Of a DNA stretch of 64,000 nt, positions 2,996 to 57,258 are shown one piece after another. The DNA is from an uncultured Gammaproteobacteria bacterium (GTDB taxonomy: Bacteria > Patescibacteriota > Patescibacteriia > Patescibacteriales > GWC2-42-12), in contig CAZHZE010000002.1 in the NCBI GenBank assembly GCA_964537265.1, forward strand, positions 21,395 to 85,394, given 5' to 3'. A program made the translations under genes and the position numbers. The first letter of the stretch is position 1. Every line of letters begins with the position of its first letter. The notes under the pieces were generated by a model. The model was not told the origin of the DNA. It ran no database searches and saw only the letters and a program-made list of their open reading frames with translations.

Positions 2996-4939
2996 GTGAA
3001 CTCATTAAGAGATAAAATAATACAATTTTTTAGTAAAATTAAAAATTTTATTTTTAATTTAAGTTTTTCTTGGCAAATTTTAAAGAATATTTTTAATCGC
3101 GATCACAAACAAACCGAGCTAGATAAAAAACTTGTTTTTTCTTTAGCTAAATCAAGGTGGCCAAGCTTAAAACAATTAAAGTATATAAAAAAATATTTAA
3201 ATCCAGCTGAGCGCATAGTAATAAGTTTTTGCTTGGTTATTATTTTTTTCAGCTCGATTTTTTTGGGTGTTAAATTTTATAAAAATCATTTGCAGATTAT
3301 CCCCGTTAATGGCGGAGATTATATTGAAGGAGTTACCGGCACCATAAAATATGTTAATCCTTTATATTCAAGCGTTAGTGATTTAAATAGCGATTTAGCT
3401 GAGTTAATTTATTCTTCATTATTTAAAAAAAATGGCAAAGATGGGTTAGCTAATGATTTAGCCGAGAGTTATGAAATAAGTAAAGATGGAAAAACCTATA
3501 TAATAAAAATTCGTTCAGACGCAATTTGGTCAGACGGCAGCCAGCTAACCATTGATGATATAATTTTTACTTTTGAAGCTATAAAAGATATCAGATATAA
3601 ATCTCCGTTAAGAGATTCTTTCGCTGGGGTAGAAATTGAAAAAATTGATGATAAGACTATAAAATTTATTTTGTCCGAACCATATGCCGCTTTTTTAAAT
3701 TTGTTAACCTTTGGAATTTTACCACAAAATCTTTGGCAACAAATTGAACCAAATTCGGCTAGTTTAGCCGAACTAAATTTAAAGCCAGTCGGCTCGGGAA
3801 AATATAAATTTAAATCATTGGTTAAAGATAAATCCGGGAATATTAAAACTTATACTTTAGTGCGTAATGAAAATTATTACAGCGATAAGCCTTTTATTGA
3901 CACCATTATTTTTAAGCTCTTTGCTAATTCCCAGGAGGCTATTTTAGCTTTAAATAATAATTTAATAAATGGCGTAAGCTATTTATTAGAACAAGATAAA
4001 AGCCAGGTGGCCTCACAAGATTCTTTAAACTTCTATAATTTAAATTATTCTAAAATTTCAGCAATATTTTTAAATACTAAGTCTAATACGGCTTTGGCTG
4101 ATAAAAAAATTCGTCAAGCCTTAGCTTATGCAATTGATAAACATAGTTTAATTGATGAAGTTTTAGGAGGAAATGCCCGTATTATAGATAGCCCAATTTT
4201 ACCGGATAGTTTTGCTTATTATAAAGATATTAAAAAGTATGATTATAATGTAGCTACTTCCAGCCGCTTATTAAATGAAGCTGGCTGGAAAATAGTTGAG
4301 CTGACTTCCGCAGACCTAGAACAAGCGAATAAGGATTTGTCCTCTAAAGATGAAGCTATTAAAAAACAGGCTGAAGCTAAAATTAAAATGGGCGTTGGCA
4401 AATGGCTTTCAAAAGATAAAAATTATTTAGCCATAACTTTAACTACTGTTGATAATCCAGAATATAGCAAGGTGGCTGAGATAGTCGCTAGATTTTGGAA
4501 AAATATTAATATAAAAACAGAAATTAATTTAGTTGCTCCTAACCAAATTCAAAATAATATTATAAAGTCAAGAAATTTTGACGCTTTGATTTACGGGGAA
4601 ATAACCGGTGCTGACCCAGACCCTTATGTTTTTTGGCATTCTTCACAAATTGGACAATCTGGTTTAAATATAGCTGATTATGGCAATAAAGAAGTTGACA
4701 AGTTGTTAGAAGACGGGCGTTTAAATATAGATATAAAAATTCGTCAAGAAAAATACAAAAAATTTCAAGAAATTATTGTTGATGAAGAGCCAGCTATATT
4801 TTTATACAGCCCAAACTATATTTATGTCCAATCAAAAAAAATTAAAGGTTTTAATGTTCAAAATATTATTTCACCGACTGATCGTCTCAGTAATATCGGC
4901 CAGTGGTATATAAATACCGGTAAAAAACTTATTTGGTAA
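2996..4939 (+). CDS. solute-binding protein, family 5 (OppA/DppA-like), membrane-anchored
   Basis: 647 aa (GTG start in the track). N-terminal TM segment followed by a peptide/nickel SBP-like sequence. No permease or ATPase genes are adjacent. Confidence 0.75.
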   Translation: MNSLRDKIIQFFSKIKNFIFNLSFSWQILKNIFNRDHKQTELDKKLVFSLAKSRWPSLKQLKYIKKYLNPAERIVISFCLVIIFFSSIFLGVKFYKNHLQIIPVNGGDYIEGVTGTIKYVNPLYSSVSDLNSDLAELIYSSLFKKNGKDGLANDLAESYEISKDGKTYIIKIRSDAIWSDGSQLTIDDIIFTFEAIKDIRYKSPLRDSFAGVEIEKIDDKTIKFILSEPYAAFLNLLTFGILPQNLWQQIEPNSASLAELNLKPVGSGKYKFKSLVKDKSGNIKTYTLVRNENYYSDKPFIDTIIFKLFANSQEAILALNNNLINGVSYLLEQDKSQVASQDSLNFYNLNYSKISAIFLNTKSNTALADKKIRQALAYAIDKHSLIDEVLGGNARIIDSPILPDSFAYYKDIKKYDYNVATSSRLLNEAGWKIVELTSADLEQANKDLSSKDEAIKKQAEAKIKMGVGKWLSKDKNYLAITLTTVDNPEYSKVAEIVARFWKNINIKTEINLVAPNQIQNNIIKSRNFDALIYGEITGADPDPYVFWHSSQIGQSGLNIADYGNKEVDKLLEDGRLNIDIKIRQEKYKKFQEIIVDEEPAIFLYSPNYIYVQSKKIKGFNVQNIISPTDRLSNIGQWYINTGKKLIW

Positions 4940-5005
4940 TATTACTATAAATCTTTAGCTTATTAGCTAGTATTCTTAATTGCTTCATCAATTATAAAAT
5001 TAGTT

Positions 5006-5089
5006 GCCGAAGTGGCGAAATTGGTAGACGCACTAGCTTCAGGAGCTAGCGGAGGCAACTCCATGGAGGTTCGAATCCTCTCTTCGGCA
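5006..5089 (+). tRNA. tRNA-Leu (anticodon CAG)
   Basis: Acceptor GCCGAAG/CTTCGGC, anticodon loop TTCAGGA, long variable arm, T-loop GGTTCGAATCC. Confidence 0.9.
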
Positions 5090-5109
5090 CAATTAATATA
5101 AATAAAAAT

Positions 5110-6912
5110 ATGATAACAAAATATAAACCAAGAAATAGAAGGCATCAGATGCCTGTTGCTAAAACTAGTGCGAATTTAACGCATAAAAGTTTTGAGCGCC
5201 CAGTAGTCAAAACAAGCGCTACTGCTGTAATAGAAAATAAATTAAAAGTTATAGTTTTAGGCGGGCTTGAAGAAGTCGGTCGCAATATGACTGTGCTTGA
5301 ATATGATGGAGAAATAATAATTATTGATATGGGTATACAGTTTCCAGAAGAAGATATGCCTGGCATCGATTATATTATTCCTAATATCAATTATTTAGAG
5401 AATAAAACTAAAATGATTAAAGGCATAATTATTACCCATGGCCATATGGATCATATTGGAGCTATTCCTCATTTAATGTCTAGGCTTGGTAACCCGCCAA
5501 TGTTTATGGGCAAGTTAACCGCCGGCATAGTTAGAAAAAGAGCAGAAGAGTTTAATAAATGCCCTAAATTAAATATTTCAGAAATAAATGAAACTTCAAA
5601 ATTGCAGTTAGGAAAATTTTTTAGAGTTGAAACTTTAAGAGTTAATCATTCTATACCTGATTGTTTTGCCGTTATTGTTCATACTCCCCTAGGAGCAATT
5701 ATTCATACCGGTGATTTTAAAATAGATTATTCTCCAGTTAATGATAAGCCGGCTGATTTAAATCGCATTGCTCAAATCGGCGGGCAAGGCGTATTGCTTT
5801 TAATGTCTGATTCCACTGATTCTACTCATCCCGGTTATCAAATCTCCGAATCTTCCATCGGAGATGAAATGAGTAAAATTTTTGAAAAGTTAGAAGGCAG
5901 AATTATTATTGGCACTTTTGCTTCTCAATTAAGCCGTGTGCAGAAACTTTTTGATTTAGCGGAAAAATTTGGTCGTAGAATAAATTTACAGGGCCGTACT
6001 ATGAATGACAATGTAGAAATCGCTCACCAAATTGGTTATCTTAAATTCAATCCTAAAATTTTAGTTGAAGATCGAGAATTAGATCGTTTGCCTGATAATA
6101 AAATTATTATTTTGGGTACCGGCGCGCAAGGCGAAAATAATGCCTTCTTAAGCAGAGTAGTTAATAATGAACATCGCAGCATAAATTTAAAGCCGGGTGA
6201 TACCGTTATTTTTTCTTCATCAGTAATTCCCGGGAATGAACGCAGTATTCAAACTTTAATGGATATGATGGTTAGACAAGGAGCTAAAGTTATAAATTAC
6301 GAAATGATGGATGTCCATGCTGGTGGTCACGCCAAACAAGAAGATTTAAAATTAATGATGCGTTTAATTAAACCAGAATATTTTATGCCAATTGAAGGCA
6401 ACCATTACATGTTGCGCGCGCAGGCTGAATTGGCCGAACAGGTTGGTACGCCAAAAAATAAAATATTTGTGGCTGATAATGGGCAAATTGTAGAATTTCA
6501 CAAAATTTCTAGCGGAGAAGTTATTGGCAAACTTACTAAAGAAAAAGTTTTAACTGATTATGTTATGGTTGATGGTTTGGGCGTAGGTGATGTTTCTAAC
6601 ATTGTTTTACGCGATCGTCGAGTTATGGCTGAAGATGGCATGATTGTTGTTATTGCCACTATTGATGCTAAAACAGGCGATACGATTGGCAATCCAGATA
6701 TTATTTCCCGAGGTTTTGTATATATGAAAGAAAACAAAGAATTAATACAAAAGACTAGAATGAAAGTTAAGAAGATAGTAAAAGATCATAATCCGCGCAC
6801 GCCAGCTGACGACGATTATATTAAAAATAAAATCAGAAATGATGTTGGGCAATTTCTTTTTAGCCAGACTAAACGTCGTCCGATGGTTTTACCGGTGGTT
6901 ATAAAAGTTTAA
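5110..6912 (+). CDS. rnj: ribonuclease J (metallo-beta-lactamase / beta-CASP)
   Basis: 600 aa. HGHMDHIGA motif, beta-CASP region and RNase J C-terminal domain. Confidence 0.9.
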   Translation: MITKYKPRNRRHQMPVAKTSANLTHKSFERPVVKTSATAVIENKLKVIVLGGLEEVGRNMTVLEYDGEIIIIDMGIQFPEEDMPGIDYIIPNINYLENKTKMIKGIIITHGHMDHIGAIPHLMSRLGNPPMFMGKLTAGIVRKRAEEFNKCPKLNISEINETSKLQLGKFFRVETLRVNHSIPDCFAVIVHTPLGAIIHTGDFKIDYSPVNDKPADLNRIAQIGGQGVLLLMSDSTDSTHPGYQISESSIGDEMSKIFEKLEGRIIIGTFASQLSRVQKLFDLAEKFGRRINLQGRTMNDNVEIAHQIGYLKFNPKILVEDRELDRLPDNKIIILGTGAQGENNAFLSRVVNNEHRSINLKPGDTVIFSSSVIPGNERSIQTLMDMMVRQGAKVINYEMMDVHAGGHAKQEDLKLMMRLIKPEYFMPIEGNHYMLRAQAELAEQVGTPKNKIFVADNGQIVEFHKISSGEVIGKLTKEKVLTDYVMVDGLGVGDVSNIVLRDRRVMAEDGMIVVIATIDAKTGDTIGNPDIISRGFVYMKENKELIQKTRMKVKKIVKDHNPRTPADDDYIKNKIRNDVGQFLFSQTKRRPMVLPVVIKV

Positions 6913-7064: not shown

Positions 7065-8399
7065 GTGAATTCACTGATATTTTTAGTAAAATTTTTTATC
7101 TTTTTGAAGAGGTTATTAACCGCTTTTTTTGTTAATATAATACTAAAACCAATTATATTTATTTTAAAATTTATATTTTATAAAATTTTAGTTAAATTAT
7201 ATTTATTTTATTTTTCTATTATAAATCGTTTAGGATTATTTGATAAAATAAGAAGTAGATCCACCTCTTTTTTTTCTAACCAAAGATTACTTCATATAAG
7301 TGTTGGTTTATTAACTGTATTTTTTATTATTTTTAATTTAACCCAAAAAACTCAAGCCATAGCTCCGGACGAGATTGCTGGCAAAACATTTTTATCAGAA
7401 ATATTCTCTAATGAATTTGGTGAAAATGAAGAATTAATAGAAGAGTATTTTGACGAGGAACAAACCATAACTCCAATTCAACAGACTTATTTAGATAATC
7501 TAACCGCTTTTAAATCTCAGCCAACGGCAGAAATGATAATCCCAGAAGATATGGGATATGATCTAGAGGATGTTATTCAAAACGGTGACGCTTTAATTAA
7601 AAAAGATACCGCCTCTACAAATAATAAAATAATTCGTCCTAGAGAAGGAATTGTTGATTATATAGTAAAAACTGGTGATACAATTAGCACAATTGCTGCC
7701 AGCTTTGGAATTAGCGTTAATACAATTTTGTGGGAGAATAACCTCAACGCTTATAGCTTAATTAGGCCGGGCAATAAGTTAGTTATTTTGCCTGTTAGCG
7801 GAGTTTCTCATCAGGTTGCTAAAGGAGATACTTTACTATCCATAGCCTCTAAATATGGGGTAGATTCTAATAAAATTATGGAAGTAAATAAATTGGCTAA
7901 TGCAGAGATGCTTTCTTCAGGTCAAAAATTAATTATTCCTGGTGGCAAAAAAAATTATTATGCCAGCAATTCAGCAAGCAGCGCTTCTAATATTTCCCTA
8001 AAAAATTTATTTAAGCCGGAAAATCTTAAATCAACAGCTAGCAATAAATTGGCTTGGCCGACTGTCGGCGCTAGAATTACTCAATATTATTCTTGGAGAC
8101 ATTATGCTATTGATATAGCCAATAAAATTGGCACGCCAATTTATGCTTGCGATTCTGGCGTAATTGAAGTGGCTGGTTGGGGCAAGGGTTATGGCAATCA
8201 AATTGTTGTAGACCATGGAGGCGGCAGAAAATCTCGCTATGCTCATTTATCAAAATTTTATGTAAAAAAAGGTGATGCGGTTGAAAAAGGAGAGGCTATT
8301 GGAGCTATGGGTTCGACCGGATATTCGACTGGTTCGCATTTACATTTTGAATATATTATTAATGGCGTAAAAACTAATCCTTTAAATTATTTAAAATAA
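7065..8399 (+). CDS. LysM-domain M23 family peptidoglycan endopeptidase
   Basis: 444 aa. N-terminal TM region, two LysM repeats (YIVKTGDTISTIA, HQVAKGDTLLSIA), and a C-terminal M23 motif (..GSTGYSTGSHLHFE). Confidence 0.9.
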   Translation: MNSLIFLVKFFIFLKRLLTAFFVNIILKPIIFILKFIFYKILVKLYLFYFSIINRLGLFDKIRSRSTSFFSNQRLLHISVGLLTVFFIIFNLTQKTQAIAPDEIAGKTFLSEIFSNEFGENEELIEEYFDEEQTITPIQQTYLDNLTAFKSQPTAEMIIPEDMGYDLEDVIQNGDALIKKDTASTNNKIIRPREGIVDYIVKTGDTISTIAASFGISVNTILWENNLNAYSLIRPGNKLVILPVSGVSHQVAKGDTLLSIASKYGVDSNKIMEVNKLANAEMLSSGQKLIIPGGKKNYYASNSASSASNISLKNLFKPENLKSTASNKLAWPTVGARITQYYSWRHYAIDIANKIGTPIYACDSGVIEVAGWGKGYGNQIVVDHGGGRKSRYAHLSKFYVKKGDAVEKGEAIGAMGSTGYSTGSHLHFEYIINGVKTNPLNYLK

Positions 8400-8519
8400 C
8401 CTTTAAAAACTTTTTCAAAAAAGTTTTTAATATTTTCAAAAAATATAAGGTATCAAATTAAAATTTAATAGCGGGCAAAGCCCTACGGCCATTAAATTTT
8501 TATTTAATTATATAAAATT
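8399..8519 (+). repeat. modular intergenic cassette, copy 3
   Basis: AACCTTTAAAAAC, the A/T palindrome, AATATTTTCAAAAAATATAAGGTATCAAAT, and the hairpin at 8461-8499 (AAATTTAATAGC-GGGC-AAA-GCCC-TACG-GCCATTAAATTT). Confidence 0.85.
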
Positions 8520-9301: not shown

Positions 9302-12109
9302 ATGGTTGCTGGTAAACAAAAATTTATGATAATTGACGGCAACGCGTTGATCCATCGCAGTTTTCACGCTTTGCCGCCCTTAACTACAAAAAATGGAGAA
9401 ATTGTTAATGCGGTTTATGGTTTTACCACCGTTTTAATTAAGGCTTTGCGCGAATTTAGGCCAGAATATGTAGCTTTAACTTTGGATCGAAAAGAAAAAA
9501 CTTTCCGCCATAAACAATTTAAAGATTATAAAGCCACTCGTGTTAAAGCGCCAGATGAATTATATGAGCAAATTCCTAGAGTAAAAGAAATTGCGGAAAA
9601 TTTTAATATTCCGATTTTTGAACTGGCCGGTTTTGAAGCAGATGATTTAATTGGCACCTTGGCTAATAAAGTTGATGGCAAAGTTGAAAAAATAATCGTT
9701 ACCGGTGATATGGATACTATGCAGTTAATTAATGATCATACTAAAGTTTTTACCATGAAACGCGGTTTAACCGATTCTATGATTTATGATGAGAAAGGGG
9801 TTGAAGGAAGATATGGCTTAATACCTGAACAGATGATTGATTTTAAAGCTTTGCGCGGCGATCCATCTGATAATATTCCTGGCGTAAAAGGCATTGGTGA
9901 AAAGACGGCTACCGAACTTTTACAAAATTTTAAAACTCTAGACGGAGTTTATAAAAATATAAAATCTAAAAAAATAAAAGACCGCATTCGTGAATTGCTA
10001 ATACAGCATAAAAATAATGCTTATATGAGCAAAGAATTAGCTACTATAAAATGTGATGTTCCAATTAAATTTGATTTAAACGAGGCTCGTTTCGGGCAAT
10101 TTAATCAAGAAAAATTAGCTAAACTTTTTAATGAATTGGAATTTCGTTCGCTTTTACCAAGGTTGCAGGGGTTAGCGCAAGAGGCTGAAAAAAGATTAAT
10201 AAAAACCGCTGATCATGAACAGATTGATAAATTTAAGAGGAATTTAGAATTATTTAAATATGAGTTAGTTGATAATAATAAAAAATTTGATAATTTTTTA
10301 AAAAAATTGCAGGCACAAAAAGAATTTACTTTTGATACGGAAACAGCTAACTTTAATCCGGTAACAGCTGATTTATTGGGCATAAGTTTTAGTTGGAAAA
10401 CTGGTGAAGCATATTATATTAATTTTCAATTACGAATTAAAAATTACGAATTAAAAAATGCTGATTTGTTCAACTATAAGGAAAAAAAGCATGAAAAAGG
10501 GTTTGATAATGATTGGTTGAGCAAGCTAAAGCCAATTTTTGAAAACGAAAAAATAAAAAAATATGGTCATAACATAAAATTTGATATTGAAGTTATGGCC
10601 AGCCAAGGAATAAATATTAAAGGTGTGGTCGCTGATTCTATGATTGCCTCCTATCTTTTAAATCCCGGCAGCCGTCAGCATAATTTAGACGCGGTTACTT
10701 TTAGTGAATTTAACCATGTTAAAATTTCTAAAGAAGATTTATTGGGCAAAGGCAAAGATAAAATAGTTTTTTCTGAAGTACCGGTTGAAAGACTTTATAA
10801 TTATTCCTGCGAGGACGCTGATTTTACTAATCGCTTGATAAAAAAATTAATACCAGAATTAAAGACGCAGAAATTAATTAAATTATTTGAAGAAATGGAA
10901 ATGCCACTTGTTCTAGTTCTGGCTATTATGGAAATTAACGGCATTAAAATAGATAAAGAATTTTTAAGCGCCATGGGTAAATCGGTCAATAGAAAGATTG
11001 CACAGCTAACAAAAAAAATTCATGATTTAGCCGGCACGGAATTTAACATAAATTCTACCCAGCAATTAAGAGAAATTTTATTTGATAAACTGGCTATACC
11101 GGCTATGGGCATTACTAAAAATAAAACCGGACTTTCTACTGGCGCTGAAGAATTAGCCAAATTAAAAGGCCAGCATCCAATTATTGATTTAATTCAGGAA
11201 TATCGTGAATTAGTTAAATTATCCACGACTTATATTGAGGCTTTGCCCGAATTAATTAATAAAAAAACTGGCCGTTTGCACACCAGTTTTAACCAGACTG
11301 TAACGGCTACCGGACGTTTATCATCAACCGAACCTAATATGCAAAATATACCGATTCGCACTGAGCTAGGTCGGGAAATTCGTAAGTCTTTTATCGCCGA
11401 TAAAGGCTATAAATTATTAAGTTTAGATTATTCCCAAATTGAATTGCGTCTGGCCGCCCATATGTCTGGCGATAAAAAAATGATTAAAGCCTTTAAACAA
11501 GGCGAAGATATTCACACGGCCACAGCCGCGGAAATAAATCGGATTAAATTAGAGGATGTTACTTCGGAAATGCGCCGGGAAGCTAAGGCGGTAAATTTTG
11601 GTATTTTATATGGCCAAGGGCCGCACGGTTTATCACAGGGCGCGGATATTCCCTACGCCAGGGCCAAAGAATTTATTGATAAATATTTTTCTGTTTATAA
11701 AGATGTTAAAAAATTTGTTGATGAAACTATTGAGATGGCCAGAGAAAAAGGCTATACTGAAACTTTATTCGGCCGGCGTAGAATTTTACCGGAAATAAAT
11801 TCCTCGGTGATGCAAGTTAGAAAGGCGGCTGAGCGCATGGCAATTAATACTCCGCTTCAAGGCACGGCCGCGGATATTATCAAAGTGGCCATGGTAGAGG
11901 TTCAAAAAATGATAGATAAAGAATATGGGCAGGATGTAAAAATGCTTTTACAAGTTCATGACGAATTAGTTTTTGAAGCAAAAAAAGGTTTAGCTGAAAA
12001 TGCGGCTGAAAAAATTAAAAATATTATGGAAGAAGTAATAGAATTAAAAGTGCCGATTGTAGTTGATGCTAGTATTGGAGATAATTGGGGGGAGATGAAA
12101 AACCTTTAA
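9302..12109 (+). CDS. polA: DNA polymerase I
   Basis: 935 aa. 5'-nuclease domain (IIDGNALIHRSFHA), 3'-5' exo-like domain, and pol motifs (LLSLDYSQIELR, QVHDELVFE). Confidence 0.96.
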   Translation: MVAGKQKFMIIDGNALIHRSFHALPPLTTKNGEIVNAVYGFTTVLIKALREFRPEYVALTLDRKEKTFRHKQFKDYKATRVKAPDELYEQIPRVKEIAENFNIPIFELAGFEADDLIGTLANKVDGKVEKIIVTGDMDTMQLINDHTKVFTMKRGLTDSMIYDEKGVEGRYGLIPEQMIDFKALRGDPSDNIPGVKGIGEKTATELLQNFKTLDGVYKNIKSKKIKDRIRELLIQHKNNAYMSKELATIKCDVPIKFDLNEARFGQFNQEKLAKLFNELEFRSLLPRLQGLAQEAEKRLIKTADHEQIDKFKRNLELFKYELVDNNKKFDNFLKKLQAQKEFTFDTETANFNPVTADLLGISFSWKTGEAYYINFQLRIKNYELKNADLFNYKEKKHEKGFDNDWLSKLKPIFENEKIKKYGHNIKFDIEVMASQGINIKGVVADSMIASYLLNPGSRQHNLDAVTFSEFNHVKISKEDLLGKGKDKIVFSEVPVERLYNYSCEDADFTNRLIKKLIPELKTQKLIKLFEEMEMPLVLVLAIMEINGIKIDKEFLSAMGKSVNRKIAQLTKKIHDLAGTEFNINSTQQLREILFDKLAIPAMGITKNKTGLSTGAEELAKLKGQHPIIDLIQEYRELVKLSTTYIEALPELINKKTGRLHTSFNQTVTATGRLSSTEPNMQNIPIRTELGREIRKSFIADKGYKLLSLDYSQIELRLAAHMSGDKKMIKAFKQGEDIHTATAAEINRIKLEDVTSEMRREAKAVNFGILYGQGPHGLSQGADIPYARAKEFIDKYFSVYKDVKKFVDETIEMAREKGYTETLFGRRRILPEINSSVMQVRKAAERMAINTPLQGTAADIIKVAMVEVQKMIDKEYGQDVKMLLQVHDELVFEAKKGLAENAAEKIKNIMEEVIELKVPIVVDASIGDNWGEMKNL

Positions 12110-12219
12110 AAACTTTTTTAAAAAAGTTTTTAATATTTTCAAAAAATATAAGGTATTAAATAAAAATTTTATAGCGGGCAAAGCCCTGCGGCTATAAAAT
12201 TTATATTTGATGTAATTTT
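12101..12219 (+). repeat. modular intergenic cassette, copy 4 (overlaps polA stop)
   Basis: AACCTTTAAAAAC contains the last polA codons and the TAA stop. Palindrome at 12108-12131. Hairpin at 12164-12202 with a compensated outer stem (TATAGC/GCTATA). Confidence 0.85.
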
Positions 12220-21379: not shown

Positions 21380-21412
21380 AAAATCCCGTCATTTTAATCA
21401 CGGGATTTTTTA
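21380..21412 (+). terminator. intrinsic terminator
   Basis: AAAATCCCGT-loop-ACGGGATTTTTT. Confidence 0.8.
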
Positions 21413-51646: not shown

Positions 51647-53011
51647 ATGGAATTAAATTTAGAGTTTCTATCTATTCAAAATCCCTGGTGGCATAATTCC
51701 AAAAAATCTCTTTACCAGGGAGAAAATTTAAAATTTGATACAAAAATTGAATATTATAATCACCAGGCTTTAAAATGGCGGCCGGCAGTTTTAGATGAAA
51801 TAAATTTTAATAAAGATAATGTTTATTGTTTAAGTGGCGCTAAGGGCGTAGGTAAAACTACGTTATTAAAATTGATGATTAAAAAATTAATTGAAGAAGA
51901 TCATGTTAATCCGGATAATATATTTTTTTATTCCTGCCAAAATTTAGACAGCTTTGAACAACTTAATGAAATGATTAAGTTGTTTTTAAGTTTAAAGGCA
52001 GTAAAAAAACAACGCCATTATATTTTTATTGACGAGATTGCCATGCTAAAAAATTGGCAGAAGGGTATTAATTTTTTAATCAAGGCTAATAAATTAACTA
52101 ATGCGATTGCAGTTCTTTCAGCCTCGTCTTTAACTGAAAATAAGTTTAATAATATAAAAAATATTTTTATAGATAATTTATCTTTTAGCGAATTTGGCAG
52201 TTTAATAAATCCAGAACTCTTTAAAAATTTAGGTGAAGAAAATTATTTACTTAAGCAAAATAAACTAGAATATTATTTAGATATTTATTTTTTGACCGGC
52301 GGTTTTATTTCCGCTATTAACAACTACAAAGAGCATGGTTCAGTCAGGCAAAATATTTATAGCGGTTTTTTACATTGGTTTTTAATCCAAATCGCTAAGT
52401 CAAACAGAGATATAGCTTTAGCTAGGCAAATAATGGAAAGATTGATTTTAAATTTAGGTCAACCGGTTGGCTATCAAACCTTAACTCATAAAACTAAAGC
52501 TAAAACTCATTTAACAGCGGCTGAATATTTAAATATTTTAGAATCAACGCTAGCTATCAAAACGGTTTATCAATCGAATGGCGGAGAAGTGTCTAGCCGC
52601 AAAGCTAAAAAGGTTTATTTTAGGGATCAGTTTATTTTTTGGCTTTTTTATTCTTATATTTATGGTTCGCTTAATTATTATCAATTAGCCCGCGAACGGT
52701 TGCATAATCAAAAAGTTTTTTCTGTTTTAGCCGAAAACGTTGTTTTTAGCCATTTAATTAAAAATAAAGAAAATATAATAACTTATTGGCGAGATAACAT
52801 TAAACAAATAGAAATTAATTTTTTAGTTAAAAAAGGCAAAAAAATTATGCCTATTTTAGTCAGATATAATAAAGAAATCACCAAGTCGGATTTAAATATT
52901 TTTAAACAAGCCGGGTTTAAAAATGGCTTGATTATTAGTAAAGATAAATTAGAAAATAATAACGGCATAAGCATAATGCCGCTTTCTTATTTTTTATTAT
53001 TTTATAGATAG
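51647..53011 (+). CDS. AAA-family ATPase with DUF4143-like C-terminal domain
   Basis: 454 aa. Walker A GAKGVGKTT, Walker B IFIDEI. The C-terminal half resembles the DUF4143 / restriction-endonuclease-like region seen in this family. Confidence 0.75.
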   Translation: MELNLEFLSIQNPWWHNSKKSLYQGENLKFDTKIEYYNHQALKWRPAVLDEINFNKDNVYCLSGAKGVGKTTLLKLMIKKLIEEDHVNPDNIFFYSCQNLDSFEQLNEMIKLFLSLKAVKKQRHYIFIDEIAMLKNWQKGINFLIKANKLTNAIAVLSASSLTENKFNNIKNIFIDNLSFSEFGSLINPELFKNLGEENYLLKQNKLEYYLDIYFLTGGFISAINNYKEHGSVRQNIYSGFLHWFLIQIAKSNRDIALARQIMERLILNLGQPVGYQTLTHKTKAKTHLTAAEYLNILESTLAIKTVYQSNGGEVSSRKAKKVYFRDQFIFWLFYSYIYGSLNYYQLARERLHNQKVFSVLAENVVFSHLIKNKENIITYWRDNIKQIEINFLVKKGKKIMPILVRYNKEITKSDLNIFKQAGFKNGLIISKDKLENNNGISIMPLSYFLLFYR

Positions 53012-53013
53012 TC

Positions 53014-53042
53014 TTGACAAAAATTTATATATAAGGTATTAT
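53014..53042 (+). promoter_or_regulatory. sigma70-type promoter (TTGACA-17-TATTAT)
   Basis: TTGACA at 53014-53019 (3 nt after the ATPase stop), TATTAT at 53037-53042. Confidence 0.6.
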
Positions 53043-53048
53043 GTAATA

Positions 53049-53513
53049 CTATTATGTTCTTTATTTAATGCCGCTGTCGCGCATGCGGGTACATGCGCGT
53101 GAAACTAACCGTCTCTTCAGTGGCATAGGTTGACCCGGTTAATAAAATTCCGGGTCAACTTACTTAATTAAATAAAATTCGGTAATTATTACAATCAGCG
53201 ATAACCCCTTATTAAATTTGATTGTAATATAGCCTTCTGCCAGGCGCGCCGAATTTTAAAGGAGCCTGCTGTAATTTCGTGGCTTGCCCCGGCAAAGGGT
53301 TTCACCACGGTCCTTTCAGCAGCGGGCTCCTTCCCTGAATATTACTGGATTTATAAAAATTTTAAATCCAGACTAAATTTTGAGGGGTCTTTGCTATCTT
53401 CAAGAAGGCATCGCTTCGTCCATCAACGAAACTTTGCTCCACAACTTCTTTTAGCAGAGACTTCTCGCCATAATAAAAACCCCTTTTTCTTTTTAGAAAA
53501 GGGGTTATTTTTT
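53049..53513 (+). ncRNA. ~460-nt highly structured RNA candidate, unclassified
   Basis: No ORF of 60 aa or more on either strand. At least 9 helices, several perfect at 9-10 bp (53129-38/53150-59; 53188-97/53219-28; 53345-53/53363-71; 53261-71/53317-30). Ends in the bidirectional terminator at 53476-53513. Confidence 0.6.
53476..53513. terminator. bidirectional terminator (ncRNA candidate / uvrA)
   Basis: AAAAACCCCTTTT-loop-AAAAGGGGTT with T-runs on both strands. Confidence 0.85.
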
Positions 53514-53514
53514 A

Positions 53515-56376
53515 TTAAAGTATTTTAGACAAATATTGCCCAGTGTATGATTTTTTATTATTAGCAATTTGTCGCGGTGTGCCTTGAGCCACGATTTCTC
53601 CGCCTTTTTCTCCGCCTTCAGGGCCAAGATCTATAATCCAATCGACCGATTTAATTACATCTAAATTATGTTCAATAATTAAAACCGTGTTGCCTTTATC
53701 AACTAATTGATTTAAAACATGGAGAAGTTTTTTAATATCATCAAAATGCAAACCCGTAGTCGGCTCATCAAGTATGTATAAAGTTTTTCCAGTGGCGCGG
53801 CGTGATAATTCGGTGGCTAATTTTACCCTTTGGGCTTCGCCCCCTGATAAAGTAGTGGCTGATTGACCGAGCTTAACATAACTTAATCCGACTTGGTTCA
53901 GGGTAGAAAGTTTTTGCTCAATAGCCGGAATATTTTTAAAGAAATTTAATCCTTCTTCAACCGTCATATTTAAGACATCAGAAATATTTTTTTCTTTATA
54001 ATGAATTTCTAAAGCTTCTTTATTGTAGCGCCGGCCATGGCAGACTTCGCATTCAACATAAATATCAGGCAAAAACTGCATTTCTATTTTTACCATGCCG
54101 TCGCCGCTGCAAGCTTCGCAGCGCCCGCCCGGAACGTTAAAAGAAAATCGTCCAGTTTTATAGCCTCTAATTTTAGCTTCCGGCAACGAGGCGAATAAAT
54201 CGCGAATCGGAGTAAAAGCTCCGGTATAAGTAGCTGGATTGGAGCGTGGGGTGCGGCCGATTGGCGACTGATCAATATTAATTACTTTATCAATATTTTC
54301 CAAGCCTTGAATTTCTTGATGTTTGCCTGGCGCAAGTTTTGCTCGGTAAAGTTTTTGGTTTAAAGCGTTGGCTAAAATATCAGTCATTAGGGTTGATTTA
54401 CCTGACCCGGAAACGCCGGTGATAGCAATAAGTTTTCCTAAAGGAAATTCGACATCAATATTTTTTAAATTATGCTCGCTGGCTTTTACAATTTTTAATT
54501 TTTTTCCGTTGCCGGAGCGGTATTTTTCCGGCGCGGGAATAAATTTTTTACCACTTAAATATTGACCGGTTAAAGATTTGACGTTTTTCTTTATAGCCAA
54601 CGGAGTTCCAGCAGCTACAATTTTACCGCCATGTTCGCCAGCTCCAGGGCCAATATCAACAAGCCAATCAGCTTCCAGCATAGTAGCTTCATCATGCTCA
54701 ACAACTATAACAGTATTTCCTAAGTCGCGCAGTTTTTTAAGCGTGCCGATTAATTTACTGTTATCACGTTGATGTAAACCAATAGACGGTTCGTCTAAAA
54801 TGTAAATTACGCCCATTAAAGCTGAACCAATTTGCGTGGCCAGCCTAATGCGCTGAGCTTCGCCTCCGGATAAAGTGTTAGCCGAACGGCCGAGCGTTAA
54901 ATAATCTAAGCCAACATTGGAAAGAAAATCTAGACGGGCGCAAATTTCTTTTAAAATTTGGGCGGCTATTTTTTTATCGCGAATAGATATTATTTTTGAA
55001 TTAGCTAATTCGCTGAAGAATTTTTTTTCTTGATCAATAGTTTTTGAAGAAATGTCATAAATTGATAAATCGGCAATTTTTACAGCTAGCATCTCCGGTT
55101 TTAAACGTTTTCCAGAGCAAGTCGGGCAAATTAAGACTCGCATATACTGTTCAATTTCTTTTCTGACATAATCAGATTCGGTTTGTTGAAAGCGGCGCTC
55201 TAAATTAGGAATTACGCCCTCAAATTCAGTGGTTAATTCTCCGGAAAAACGGTCGCTTTGGTAATCAACATTATAATTTTTTTCGCCTGAACCATAAAGA
55301 ACTATGTCTAATTGTTTTTTCGTCAGATCTTTAATTGGAGTATTTAAATCAAAACCTTGCGCTTGAGCAACCGTGCCTAAAATACGCATCATCCAGCCTT
55401 GGCTGCCGGCAGTGCTATGAGCCCATGGCCTGATTGCGCCTTGGGCAATGGTTAAATTAGTATTGATAATTAATTTCGGGTCGATTTCTAATTTTGTGCC
55501 TAAACCAGCACAATCAGGGCAAGCGCCATGAGGAGAATTAAAAGAGAAATTACGTGGTTCAAGTTCGGGCAGGCTTATGCCGCATTTAGAACAGGCGGAA
55601 AGTTTTGAAAAAATAGTTTCTTTTAATATTTCCTGCTTGGCTTTTTGCGGAGCCGTAGAAATCATAACTAAACCATTGCCTAATTCCAAAGCTTTTTCTA
55701 CGCTTTCAGTCAATCGCGCCAAATCTTCTTTATTTTTATTTATGGTTAAACGATCAATAACGATTTCTACATTATGTTTTTTTTGTTTGTCTACATTTAA
55801 ATCGCGAATTTCTTCTAAAGGATAAATTATTTTATCATATCTTAAACGCGCATAGCCGGCCTTAGCCACGCTATCTACTAAGCCTTTATGTTCTCCTTTT
55901 TTATCTTTAATTAAAGGAGCTAAAATTATCACATCTTTTTCATTAAAGCCGTCAGTAATTTGTCCGACTATTTCATCGATAGACATGGGTTTAATTTTTT
56001 CTCCGCAAGTTGGGCAATGAGGTATTCCGATACGGGCATAAAGTAAACGCAGATAATCATAAATTTCCGTAATAGTGCCTACGGTTGAACGTGGATTATG
56101 GGTAGTAGATTTTTGATCAATGGAAATGGCCGGTGAAAGTCCATCGATAGAATCAACGTCAGGCTTATTCATTTGACCAATAAATTGTCTGGCATAAGCC
56201 GATAAAGATTCAACATAACGGCGCTGGCCTTCGGCATAAATAGTATCAAAAGCCAAAGAAGATTTTCCCGAGCCAGATAGGCCGGTCAATACAACTAATT
56301 TATCGCGAGGTATTTCTATATCAATATTTTTTAAATTATGAACGCGCGCGCCTTTAATTTTTATATAGTTGGACAT
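53515..56376 (-). CDS. uvrA: excinuclease ABC subunit A
   Basis: 953 aa. Two ABC modules ([18 protein letters not shown]), LSGGEAQR signatures, zinc-finger Cys clusters. Confidence 0.97.
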
Positions 56377-56586: not shown

Positions 56587-57258
56587 ATGAAAAATAAATT
56601 TTGTCTGATTGTTTTTTTGGTAGTTATTTTTTTATTTTTTTCTGCAATTTGTCGAGCGGAAGAAGATGTATTTATCGGAAATCTTAATTTAACAGAGGAA
56701 ATTGTCTCACAAGAAAAAAAATTGGCGCAAAAAGAGAATATAAATCTTGCCGCTATAAAAAAATCTAATTTAGAAGCTAAAGATTTTGCGCTTTTTTTAT
56801 GTGGTGGCGTGGCCGGAGCATTATTTCATGAAGGAGGCCATATTTTAGCCGCTCGTTTGCAAGGCGTAGAATTAGATTATGTAGATAGCAGAGGCTGGCT
56901 TATGTTTAGTTCTTCTCCGTCGCAATCTCGAATTATTTCTTTAGGAGGGTTTGGCGCTCAGATATTAAGCCAAGAAGTAATTTTGGGCGCAGATATTATA
57001 AACCCTTTTACTGTGGGATGGGTGGCATTTAATAATGTTAATACTATCGCATATATAATTACGGATAGTGTTGTTAAGGGTGGTCACGGAGATTTCAAAT
57101 TTATGCGCGAAAGCGGCATAAATACGGATGTTGTTAAAGTGGTTCTTCTGGCTTATACTGCTTTCAGCGCTTATAGAGTTTCTAAAAATCCCAAAATTAT
57201 GCCATATTTTGAGATTGCTAAAGATGAGCTTTTTTTCGGCTTAGGCTGGGAATGGTAG
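56587..57258 (+). CDS. secreted/membrane protein with HExxH motif (putative zinc metalloprotease-like)
   Basis: 223 aa. Signal-like N-terminus, FHEGGHILAARLQG, hydrophobic C-half. SD AAGGAG upstream. Confidence 0.6.
   Translation: MKNKFCLIVFLVVIFLFFSAICRAEEDVFIGNLNLTEEIVSQEKKLAQKENINLAAIKKSNLEAKDFALFLCGGVAGALFHEGGHILAARLQGVELDYVDSRGWLMFSSSPSQSRIISLGGFGAQILSQEVILGADIINPFTVGWVAFNNVNTIAYIITDSVVKGGHGDFKFMRESGINTDVVKVVLLAYTAFSAYRVSKNPKIMPYFEIAKDELFFGLGWEW

Follow-up and report, generated by a model that had tools for sequence, protein, structure and literature searches.

A predicted stand-alone structured RNA gene of a new, modular family between an ATPase gene and uvrA in Falkowbacteria-like Patescibacteria

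Background

The Patescibacteria, or candidate phyla radiation (CPR), have tiny genomes, and to our knowledge hardly any of their non-coding RNAs other than the universal ones have been characterised. The window considered here is the whole 64,000-nucleotide (64-kb) stretch at positions 21,395 to 85,394 of contig CAZHZE010000002.1 (assembly GCA_964537265.1). Between the gene of an AAA_14/DUF4143 ATPase and the convergent uvrA gene it contains a spacer (53014-53513) that an initial annotation, made from the sequence alone, described as an orphan, highly structured RNA of about 460 nt with its own promoter, possibly part of a two-component system with the ATPase. Is there an RNA gene in this spacer, does it stand alone, and is it tied to its neighbour? 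The signals around it, its fold and the comparison with related loci make it highly probable that the spacer contains a true structured RNA gene, transcribed on its own and belonging to a new family restricted to one clade. In the literature on DUF4143, on PDC-S01 and on CPR non-coding RNAs, such an RNA was not found described.

A predicted self-contained transcription unit

The unit and its borders are made up of the following features:

51647-53011, plus strand: ATPase gene with AAA_14 and DUF4143 (PD-(D/E)XK) domains, similar to PADLOC PDC-S01 (Pfam, PADLOC)
52963-52981, plus strand: terminator-like hairpin with a T-rich tail inside the last ATPase codons (terminator scan)
53014-53042, plus strand: sigma-70-type promoter TTGACA-17-TATTAT, 11/12 match, with -35 box and spacing kept in all RNA-bearing relatives
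53050-53513, plus strand: predicted transcript of about 464 nt, its start put about 7 nt past the -10 box and its end at the U-tract of the terminator
53478-53513 (hairpin 53478-53506), both strands: intrinsic terminator with a 10-bp G+C-rich stem and a T-run (plus strand by terminator scan, minus-strand tail read directly)
53515-56376, minus strand: uvrA, the convergent context gene (Pfam UvrA domains; product 94% identical to that of the related locus L046)

By Pfam, the genes of this neighborhood code for a racemase, ArgRS, a VTT-domain protein, the AAA_14/DUF4143 ATPase, UvrA, a 223-aa protein without assignment and RmuC, in agreement with the flanking genes named in the initial annotation. 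The promoter is present where it had been described, 3 nt past the ATPase stop at 53011; seven sites on the two strands of the window score at least 11/12, and they include this promoter and that of uvrA itself. The shared bidirectional terminator was recovered by the scan on the plus strand only. The minus strand has the same 10-bp hairpin and, past it, TTTTTATTAT, right behind the uvrA stop (53515), so that use from this side is plausible; the scan does not list it there, the loop being above its limit. Flanked by A/T runs, the terminator would be usable from both directions and could plausibly serve uvrA. It ends 1 nt from the uvrA stop, and the next gene is convergent, so that the RNA cannot be a leader, as had been stated; a riboswitch or another cis-regulatory leader is rejected for lack of a co-oriented downstream gene. 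On the upstream side, the C-terminal ATPase codons (…MPLSYFLLFYR; the last ~50 nt of the coding sequence) double as the terminator-like hairpin at 52963-52981, which suggests that the ATPase mRNA ends before the RNA gene. In the related locus L188, a separate terminator is found between the ATPase gene and the RNA promoter.

No open reading frame (ORF) of at least 60 aa was found on either strand of the RNA region. The longest is a 45-aa frame with a TTG start (53391-53528), so that the figure of 21 codons given earlier holds only for frames starting with ATG (21 aa). The G+C content of the region is 0.39-0.43, compared with 0.17-0.24 in the spacer upstream of uvrA, an enrichment that had also been noticed.

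The segment 53050-53513 has a minimum free energy (MFE) of -171.7 kcal/mol, compared with -106.8 +/- 4.9 for 100 dinucleotide shuffles, none of which is as stable (z = -13.3). Every helix named in the initial annotation is found in this fold, in which the 5' and 3' ends pair around six domains, all on the plus strand:

53050-53056, plus strand: 5' strand of the closing helix, UAUUAUG, paired with 53469-53475 (MFE)
53068-53126, plus strand: D1, a 9-bp outer helix around an 8-bp hairpin at 53078-53099 (MFE; both helices pair in the window and in L046)
53127-53161, plus strand: D2, a 12-bp hairpin (MFE; L046 has a 13-bp hairpin of other sequence in the same place)
53173-53258, plus strand: D3, an 11-bp outer helix around a 12-bp hairpin (53187-53229) and a small hairpin (53232-53245), part of the conserved core (MFE)
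53259-53332, plus strand: D4, a 14-bp outer helix (AAGGAGCCUGCUGU / GCAGCGGGCUCCUU), an inner helix (53277-53310) and the C/U-rich internal loop GUCCUUUCA
53345-53371, plus strand: D5, a 9-bp hairpin (MFE; L046 has an 8-bp hairpin of other sequence)
53381-53467, plus strand: D6, a 16-bp outer helix and inner helices (MFE; 82% identity to L046)
53469-53475, plus strand: 3' strand of the closing helix, CAUAAUA (MFE)

The leader is likewise paired with the tail that precedes the terminator in L046 and L188; this closing helix is AU-rich and its support is weak. The six domains are unrelated in sequence to one another. No direct-repeat family exists inside 53014-53513, and a REP/MITE-like repeat is rejected, since the hairpins have no second copy in the 64-kb window. 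The 11/12 promoter, the terminator scan, the fold and the coding potential thus support the description of an RNA that stands alone between its own promoter and terminator, is highly structured and does not code for protein.

Comparison with the closest relative

Retrieval of relatives through UvrA places the window among Falkowbacteria-like Patescibacteria. Out of 80 uvrA loci, a single one, L046, harbors a sequence recognisably similar to the window RNA; it is also the closest (UvrA 94% identical). Its gene order is the same (ATPase, promoter, RNA, convergent uvrA) and its RNA is about 100 nt longer (fold z = -11.1). The same RNA sequence is carried by L177, the two loci coming from independent assemblies (L046 from NCBI, L177 from JGI).

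Nucleotide identity between the window and L046 is very uneven along the RNA: 87% in D3 and D4, 82% in D6 and 48% in D1 and D2. As a neutral proxy, third codon positions of uvrA, the ATPase gene and the VTT gene are 65-67% identical, and a stretch of 23 nt in D6, CUUUGCUCCACAACUUCUUUUAG, is invariant. The core formed by D3, D4 and D6 is thus under purifying selection, unpaired nucleotides included, and the peripheral hairpins D1, D2 and D5 are constrained in shape only. For the two sequences, RNAalifold gives 116 shared pairs; 16 double and 19 single changes among them are compensated, compared with 1-2 doubles in controls with slid partners. When the replaced hairpins (D1, D2, D5 and the terminator) are placed in structural register, none of their 42 pairs is broken: 23 have changed on both sides and 1 on a single side, and 18 are the same in the two sequences. 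For example, 6 of the 11 pairs of D2 and 4 of the 8 pairs of D5 are changed on both sides, with none broken in either, and the L046 terminator is a hairpin of other sequence in the same place, with compensatory changes.

The strands are not equivalent. G-U pairs number 13 on the promoter strand and 7 on the opposite one in the window, and 17 and 7 in L046, where the folding energy is -203 and -174 kcal/mol, respectively. Moreover, no small ORF is conserved between the window and L046. The sole shared frame (19 and 31 aa) shows three non-synonymous changes for one synonymous and a shifted stop, and it lies in a helix with compensatory changes; a gene for a small protein is rejected on these grounds. 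Given this constraint, these compensatory changes, the strand bias and the lack of a shared ORF, the molecule is very probably a plus-strand RNA under selection for its structure and core sequence, and the structure is kept by selection on the strand that the promoter defines. The initial annotation had made its case depend on conservation and covariation in relatives; homologues exist, and they carry compensatory changes.

An RNA family in the ATPase-uvrA slot

Further relatives were gathered through homologues of the ATPase and their contigs. They share a conserved block, racemase-ArgRS-VTT-ATPase facing a convergent uvrA, in which the ATPase-uvrA spacer spans from -9 to 1069 nt. Several of these spacers harbor an RNA unit of their own:

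L001 and L189: RNA unit of about 130-170 nt, z = -5.9
L092: RNA of about 220 nt, z = -4.6
L186 (identical to L187): RNA of about 230 nt, z = -5.5
L188: RNA of about 480 nt, z = -5.4

Blastn finds no similarity between the window RNA and these shorter or different RNAs. Despite this, the TTGACA promoter just past the ATPase stop is common to them and the window RNA, as are a helix of the D4 type, a terminator and a leader (UUUAAAU..UGAUCUUUU) some 30 nt long. The TTGACA box is invariant in eight spacers, and the leader of the window is the most diverged of the set. The 3' strand of the D4-equivalent helix reads CCUYUCAGCARCRGGCUYUCC and follows an unpaired C/U-rich tract. Over the seven distinct RNAs, the helix is 85.7% paired, compared with 44-64% in slid controls, and contains 14 double-changed cells, compared with 2-9. 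The support from covariation is moderate, given the small number of sequences and the richness of the strands in purines or pyrimidines. With a covariance model of D4 (R1), the seven distinct RNAs all score 52-70 bits, the window 59.7 bits (E 3.8e-12); searched over 882 kb of related loci plus the window, the model retrieves nothing beyond these seven training RNAs at E<0.001.

The minimal form (L001, L189) consists of leader, D4 and terminator. Most of the remaining members also have a long D6-like hairpin at their end, an equivalent of which was identified in L186, L092 and L188, and the window and L046 additionally hold D1-D3 and D5, giving a range from about 130 to 560 nt. The family is defined by its TTGACA promoter, its leader and a D4-type helix whose closing strand is preceded by a C/U-rich tract; the window RNA has the promoter and this helix, together with the match to R1. 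These RNAs probably form one modular, rapidly diverging and previously undescribed family, whose other domains have been gained, lost or replaced. The term "orphan" has to be abandoned, as seven distinct RNAs share the same syntenic slot. In addition, L095 retains the promoter and leader only, as a remnant. Judging from the ATPase tree, the RNA gene is ancestral to the sub-clade and was lost at least 2-3 times while the ATPase was kept; because of this repeated loss, it is accessory.

Searches with all 4227 models of Rfam 15 at their gathering scores over the 64-kb window gave no family for the RNA region. At E<=10, they returned only terminator-driven noise, the best match being PyrR with 27 bits for a gathering score of 54. 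The RNAs of relatives (18 related loci, gathering and permissive thresholds) match no family either. Outside the related loci, blastn of the window and L188 RNAs against phage and plasmid collections gave no match, and four scans of viral contigs with four conserved blocks gave only chance k-mer matches, which failed the blastn/nhmmer and covariance-model checks. Eight related viral contigs of IMG/VR (L081-L088) share an exact 20-mer, GCTCCACAACTTCTTTTAG, with D6 and nothing else, which is a chance match multiplied by redundancy within one phage family. The RNA family appears so far confined to the ATPase-uvrA slot of one Falkowbacteria-like (CPR) sub-clade.

Interpretation and proposed mechanism

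According to the explanation that we favor, a strong sigma-70-type promoter would start a non-coding transcript of about 464 nt, whose 5' and 3' ends would pair around the six helical domains D1-D6 and which would stop at the intrinsic terminator shared with convergent uvrA. This RNA would act in trans as a stable structured molecule, binding a protein or forming the scaffold of a ribonucleoprotein (RNP). Recognition would take place on the conserved core (D3, D4 and D6), and the hairpins that can be replaced (D1, D2 and D5) would be modules for structure or stability. A core constrained even where it is unpaired and a periphery constrained in shape only fit recognition by a specific, lineage-restricted partner, which would itself have to be lineage-specific or fast-evolving and would most simply be a protein. 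The adjacent ATPase is one candidate among others for this role, and an improbable one. The trans-acting, protein-binding or RNP-scaffold step is tentative, plausible rather than probable. The whole statement (an independent RNA gene, a new modular clade-restricted family and a trans-acting structured RNA) we consider slightly more probable than improbable.

Several points weigh against this explanation. The consensus structure came from the same two sequences on which it was scored, which inflates the percentage paired, and projecting the MFE fold of the window alone through a plain MAFFT alignment makes 29 pairs of the replaced hairpins, where that alignment is out of register, look broken. 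Everything searched holds two distinct sequences of the window type and seven distinct family members, too few for R-scape-grade statistics. A metagenome scan with the invariant 18-mer TTGCTCCACAACTTCTTT gave 89 matches, of which only L177 (the L046 sequence) is real, and a search with a single 18-mer could miss diverged copies elsewhere. The frequent loss shows that any function is dispensable, and long near-perfect helices with no recurrent loop motif give no positive clue to a protein partner.

If correct, an RNA of about 460 nt that is strongly promoted and under purifying selection would mean that lineage-specific structured RNAs are still afforded by genomes as reduced as these. The RNA stands out by its size, given such a reduced CPR genome, and by an architecture that is modular and changes rapidly. 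Moreover, with sizes from 130 to 560 nt around a common helix, the family lends itself as a compact natural series to following the gain, loss and replacement of RNA domains over short evolutionary distances. For the present, its significance is limited by a narrow distribution, by dispensability and by the lack of a demonstrated function.

The neighbouring ATPase

The ATPase matches AAA_14 (3.3e-17) and DUF4143 (2.5e-15) in Pfam, and PADLOC PDC-S01 (PDLC04787) over its full length (residues 44-451, E 3.5e-28). DUF4143 is classed as PD-(D/E)XK (PMC3424549), which, together with the PDC-S01 match, bears out the nuclease-like character ascribed to this protein in the initial annotation. PDC-S01 itself is a single-gene "guilt-by-embedding" candidate, an ATPase fused to a PD-(D/E)XK nuclease, unvalidated and with no RNA partner (PMC12988326).

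The RNA could thus be part of a two-part system with this ATPase/nuclease, as its regulator, antitoxin, sensor decoy or guide, with both co-diversifying. The promoter indeed starts within about 100 nt of the ATPase stop in all eight RNA-bearing or remnant loci, and the ATPase, a match to a candidate defence family (PMC12988326), is the fastest-evolving product of the block (70% amino acid identity to L046, compared with 80% for ArgRS, 82% for the VTT protein and 94% for UvrA). The RNA turns over fast between sub-families and is constrained within one, and the slot resembles a variable island (DUF559 insertions in L096, a palindromic insertion in L188, contig ends in L186, L187, L190 and L191). 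However, the ATPase orthologs of relatives are 67-73% identical whether the RNA is there or not. They persist intact in five loci lacking it (L002, L090, L091, L093 and L094; spacers of -9 to 60 nt) and beside the remnant of L095, and the RNA-less loci are interspersed among the RNA-bearing ones in a neighbour-joining tree of the ATPase. More distant ATPase-uvrA pairs (L027, L038 and L040) have gaps of only -4 to 39 nt and no spacer RNA. As all RNA-bearing loci share one synteny block, their adjacency represents a single evolutionary event and is no evidence of a functional link. Furthermore, the terminator-like hairpin of the ATPase gene and the RNA's own promoter make them separate units, and PDC-S01 was described as a single-gene candidate, experimentally unvalidated (PMC12988326). 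Retention of the ATPase does not appear to depend on the RNA, and the proposed two-component system is left unsupported; we consider a two-part arrangement unlikely. A more specific version, in which RNA and ATPase/nuclease make up a defence or toxin-control module, the hypervariable RNA regulating, sensing for or guiding the nuclease and the RNA-less lineages being degenerate or rewired, is more doubtful still. Were such a module real, one of the commonest candidate defence genes in prokaryotes would gain its first RNA partner, and an RNA working with a PDC-S01-type ATPase-nuclease would give the first functional handle on a widespread, unvalidated candidate; the present evidence does not favor the link.

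Other possible explanations

Slightly less likely again than the two-part system is a base-pairing regulatory RNA (sRNA) or sponge, in which unpaired C/U-rich tracts, of which GUCCUUUCA in D4 is one, would either titrate another RNA or bind mRNAs by base pairing, for instance at their ribosome-binding sites. It would agree with the presence of an own promoter and terminator, with an unpaired pyrimidine tract (CCUCCU, CCUUUC or CUCUUC) that immediately precedes the D4 closing strand in each of the seven RNAs, and with a gene that is dispensable and fast-evolving like those of many sRNAs. However, motifs resembling a Shine-Dalgarno (SD) sequence precede only 4 of 35 long ORFs, leaving few targets for an anti-SD tract; such a role of the C/U tract is unlikely in an organism that rarely uses SD sequences. 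No antisense target was found within the 64-kb window, where extended complementarity to the RNA is restricted to terminator-like matches. In addition, a molecule of about 460 nt with most of its bases in helices of 9-16 bp is unlike known seed-type sRNAs, and no repeated loop motif of the Csr/Rsm kind is present.

It is also rather improbable that the spacer is functionless or acts at the level of DNA or transcription, as a stack of terminator or insulator hairpins, DNA palindromes or a decaying inserted element. Hairpins do accumulate between convergent genes, the spacer is highly variable among relatives, the RNA was lost repeatedly and the opposite strand, too, folds well (z = -10.5). None of this accounts for a core 82-87% identical where the neutral proxy is at about 66%, for a near-consensus promoter kept in eight lineages, for G-U pairs and folding energies that favor one strand, or for compensatory changes that hold hairpins in place despite their replaced sequence. 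The hairpins are not repeated elsewhere in the window, and the phage, plasmid and viral collections contain nothing similar.

Finally, a very divergent housekeeping RNA (RNase P, SRP or 6S) unrecognised by Rfam in CPR is very improbable: the strong promoter, the paired 5' and 3' ends, the G+C enrichment and a string in L092, GGGGAAAGUCCGC, resembling the P4 strand of RNase P would suit it, but no RNase P, signal recognition particle (SRP) or 6S model matches at E<=10, nor in relatives, the L092 string pairs locally with GGCUUUCC as a simple hairpin, and a range of 130 to 560 nt together with absence from close relatives would be intolerable for a single-copy universal RNA at its ancestral locus.

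Other features of the window and of the slot in relatives

Some of the related slots contain further elements. In L188 (spacer remainder 3950-4416), a near-perfect AT-rich inverted repeat of about 100 nt (4064-4162) lies past the RNA terminator and is followed by further GC-rich hairpins. It gives spurious matches to miRNA precursors on both strands and looks like an insertion resembling a miniature inverted-repeat transposable element (MITE), which would indicate that the slot accepts insertions. In L096, a DUF559 (Vsr-like endonuclease) gene lies between ATPase and uvrA (4420-5422), along with a 103-aa ORF without assignment and a GC-rich palindromic repeat in two copies, ACAAATCCCCCGC...GACCCCTTTATTAAAG. 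Another DUF559 gene is inserted between ArgRS and VTT in L191 (967-1338). Four of about 15 independent assemblies (L186, L187, L190 and L191) break at the ATPase gene or within about 400 nt after it, which may reflect strain-level heterogeneity or repeats in the slot.

Elsewhere in the window, we found an element of about 120 nt in four copies that are 80-100% identical (1896-2018, 2215-2321, 8391-8513 and 12094-12216). In each copy, a promoter-like stretch is accompanied by a perfect palindrome (AAAAACTTTTTT/AAAAAAGTTTTT) and a covarying hairpin (AAUAGCGGGCAAAGCCCUACGGCCAUU), and the copies lie upstream of rplT (L20, 2340; two tandem copies), of an 84-aa ORF (8520) and of a Mur ligase gene (12220). 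The element has no Rfam match and looks like a shared operator or leader of a regulon. Directly after the tmRNA gene (679-1068) come two tRNA genes (1071-1156 and 1169-1240), and a near-consensus promoter is present at 451. Concerning translation signals, an SD-like motif is present within 20 nt upstream of 4 of the 35 ORFs of at least 150 aa, the rest having plain AT-rich leaders. The 223-aa ORF at 56587, which has AAGGAGAAGGGG, is among the exceptions.

Comparison with known RNA families and systems

In length, the window RNA is similar to RNase P RNA, with which it also has in common a strong promoter, termini that pair and a fold of many helices, and L092 has an GGAAAGUCC-like string. It differs by the lack of a match to any RNase P model (RF00010/RF00011/RF00373) at E<=10, of a long-range P4 helix and of an ACAGAA...GGCUUA strand, and by its variable size and dispensability. 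RNase P RNA is rejected, as GGAAAGUCC and the ACAGAA..GGCUUA strings are also absent from the window RNA. In L092 (4411-4492), GGGGAAAGUCC has its pairing partner GGCUUUCC about 50 nt downstream, and the look-alike GGGGAAAGUCCGC could mislead string-based searches for RNase P. SRP RNA, 6S RNA and tmRNA are dismissed as well: no covariance model matches, the tmRNA of the window is elsewhere, ARAGORN detects no tRNA- or tmRNA-like module in the RNA, and the gene is missing from close relatives. The initial annotation, too, had found no signature strings of RNase P or SRP RNA.

Some resemblance also exists to the RNAs of ToxI (type III antitoxin) and retron systems, namely a structured and fast-diversifying RNA beside a nuclease/ATPase effector of a (candidate) defence family. 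However, the window RNA lacks the tandem direct repeats of ToxI (defining unit of about 36 nt), and no reverse transcriptase is found among the neighbouring genes, so that neither a ToxI-like antitoxin nor a retron msr/msd RNA is retained. Unlike in both systems, the RNA lies downstream of the protein gene as its own unit, and the protein gene persists without it in several lineages. CsrB/RsmZ are closer in organisation, with an own promoter and terminator, a variable number of hairpins, poor sequence conservation, a fixed chromosomal position and dispensability. However, a sponge of this type is rejected, as the repeated GGA loop motif is absent, the unpaired k-mers of the seven members are only AU-rich, and no CsrA-like gene was identified in the neighborhood.

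The large RNAs OLE, ROOL, GOLLD and raiA differ from the window family by their conserved junction and loop nucleotides and their broad phyla. The family described here is restricted to one narrow CPR sub-clade; its helices are long and near-perfect, its sequence and domains turn over quickly, and its size is unstable, from 130 to 560 nt. None of the Rfam models of these RNAs, nor that of HEARO/omega RNA, all of which the initial annotation had listed as classes to search for, matched at the gathering score or at E<=10. The likeness lies in the general plan, since the window RNA is also a stand-alone unit of several hundred nucleotides, non-coding, with many helices and G+C-enriched in an AT-rich genome. 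It is thus a new RNA family of a familiar general kind, that of the stand-alone structured bacterial non-coding RNAs.

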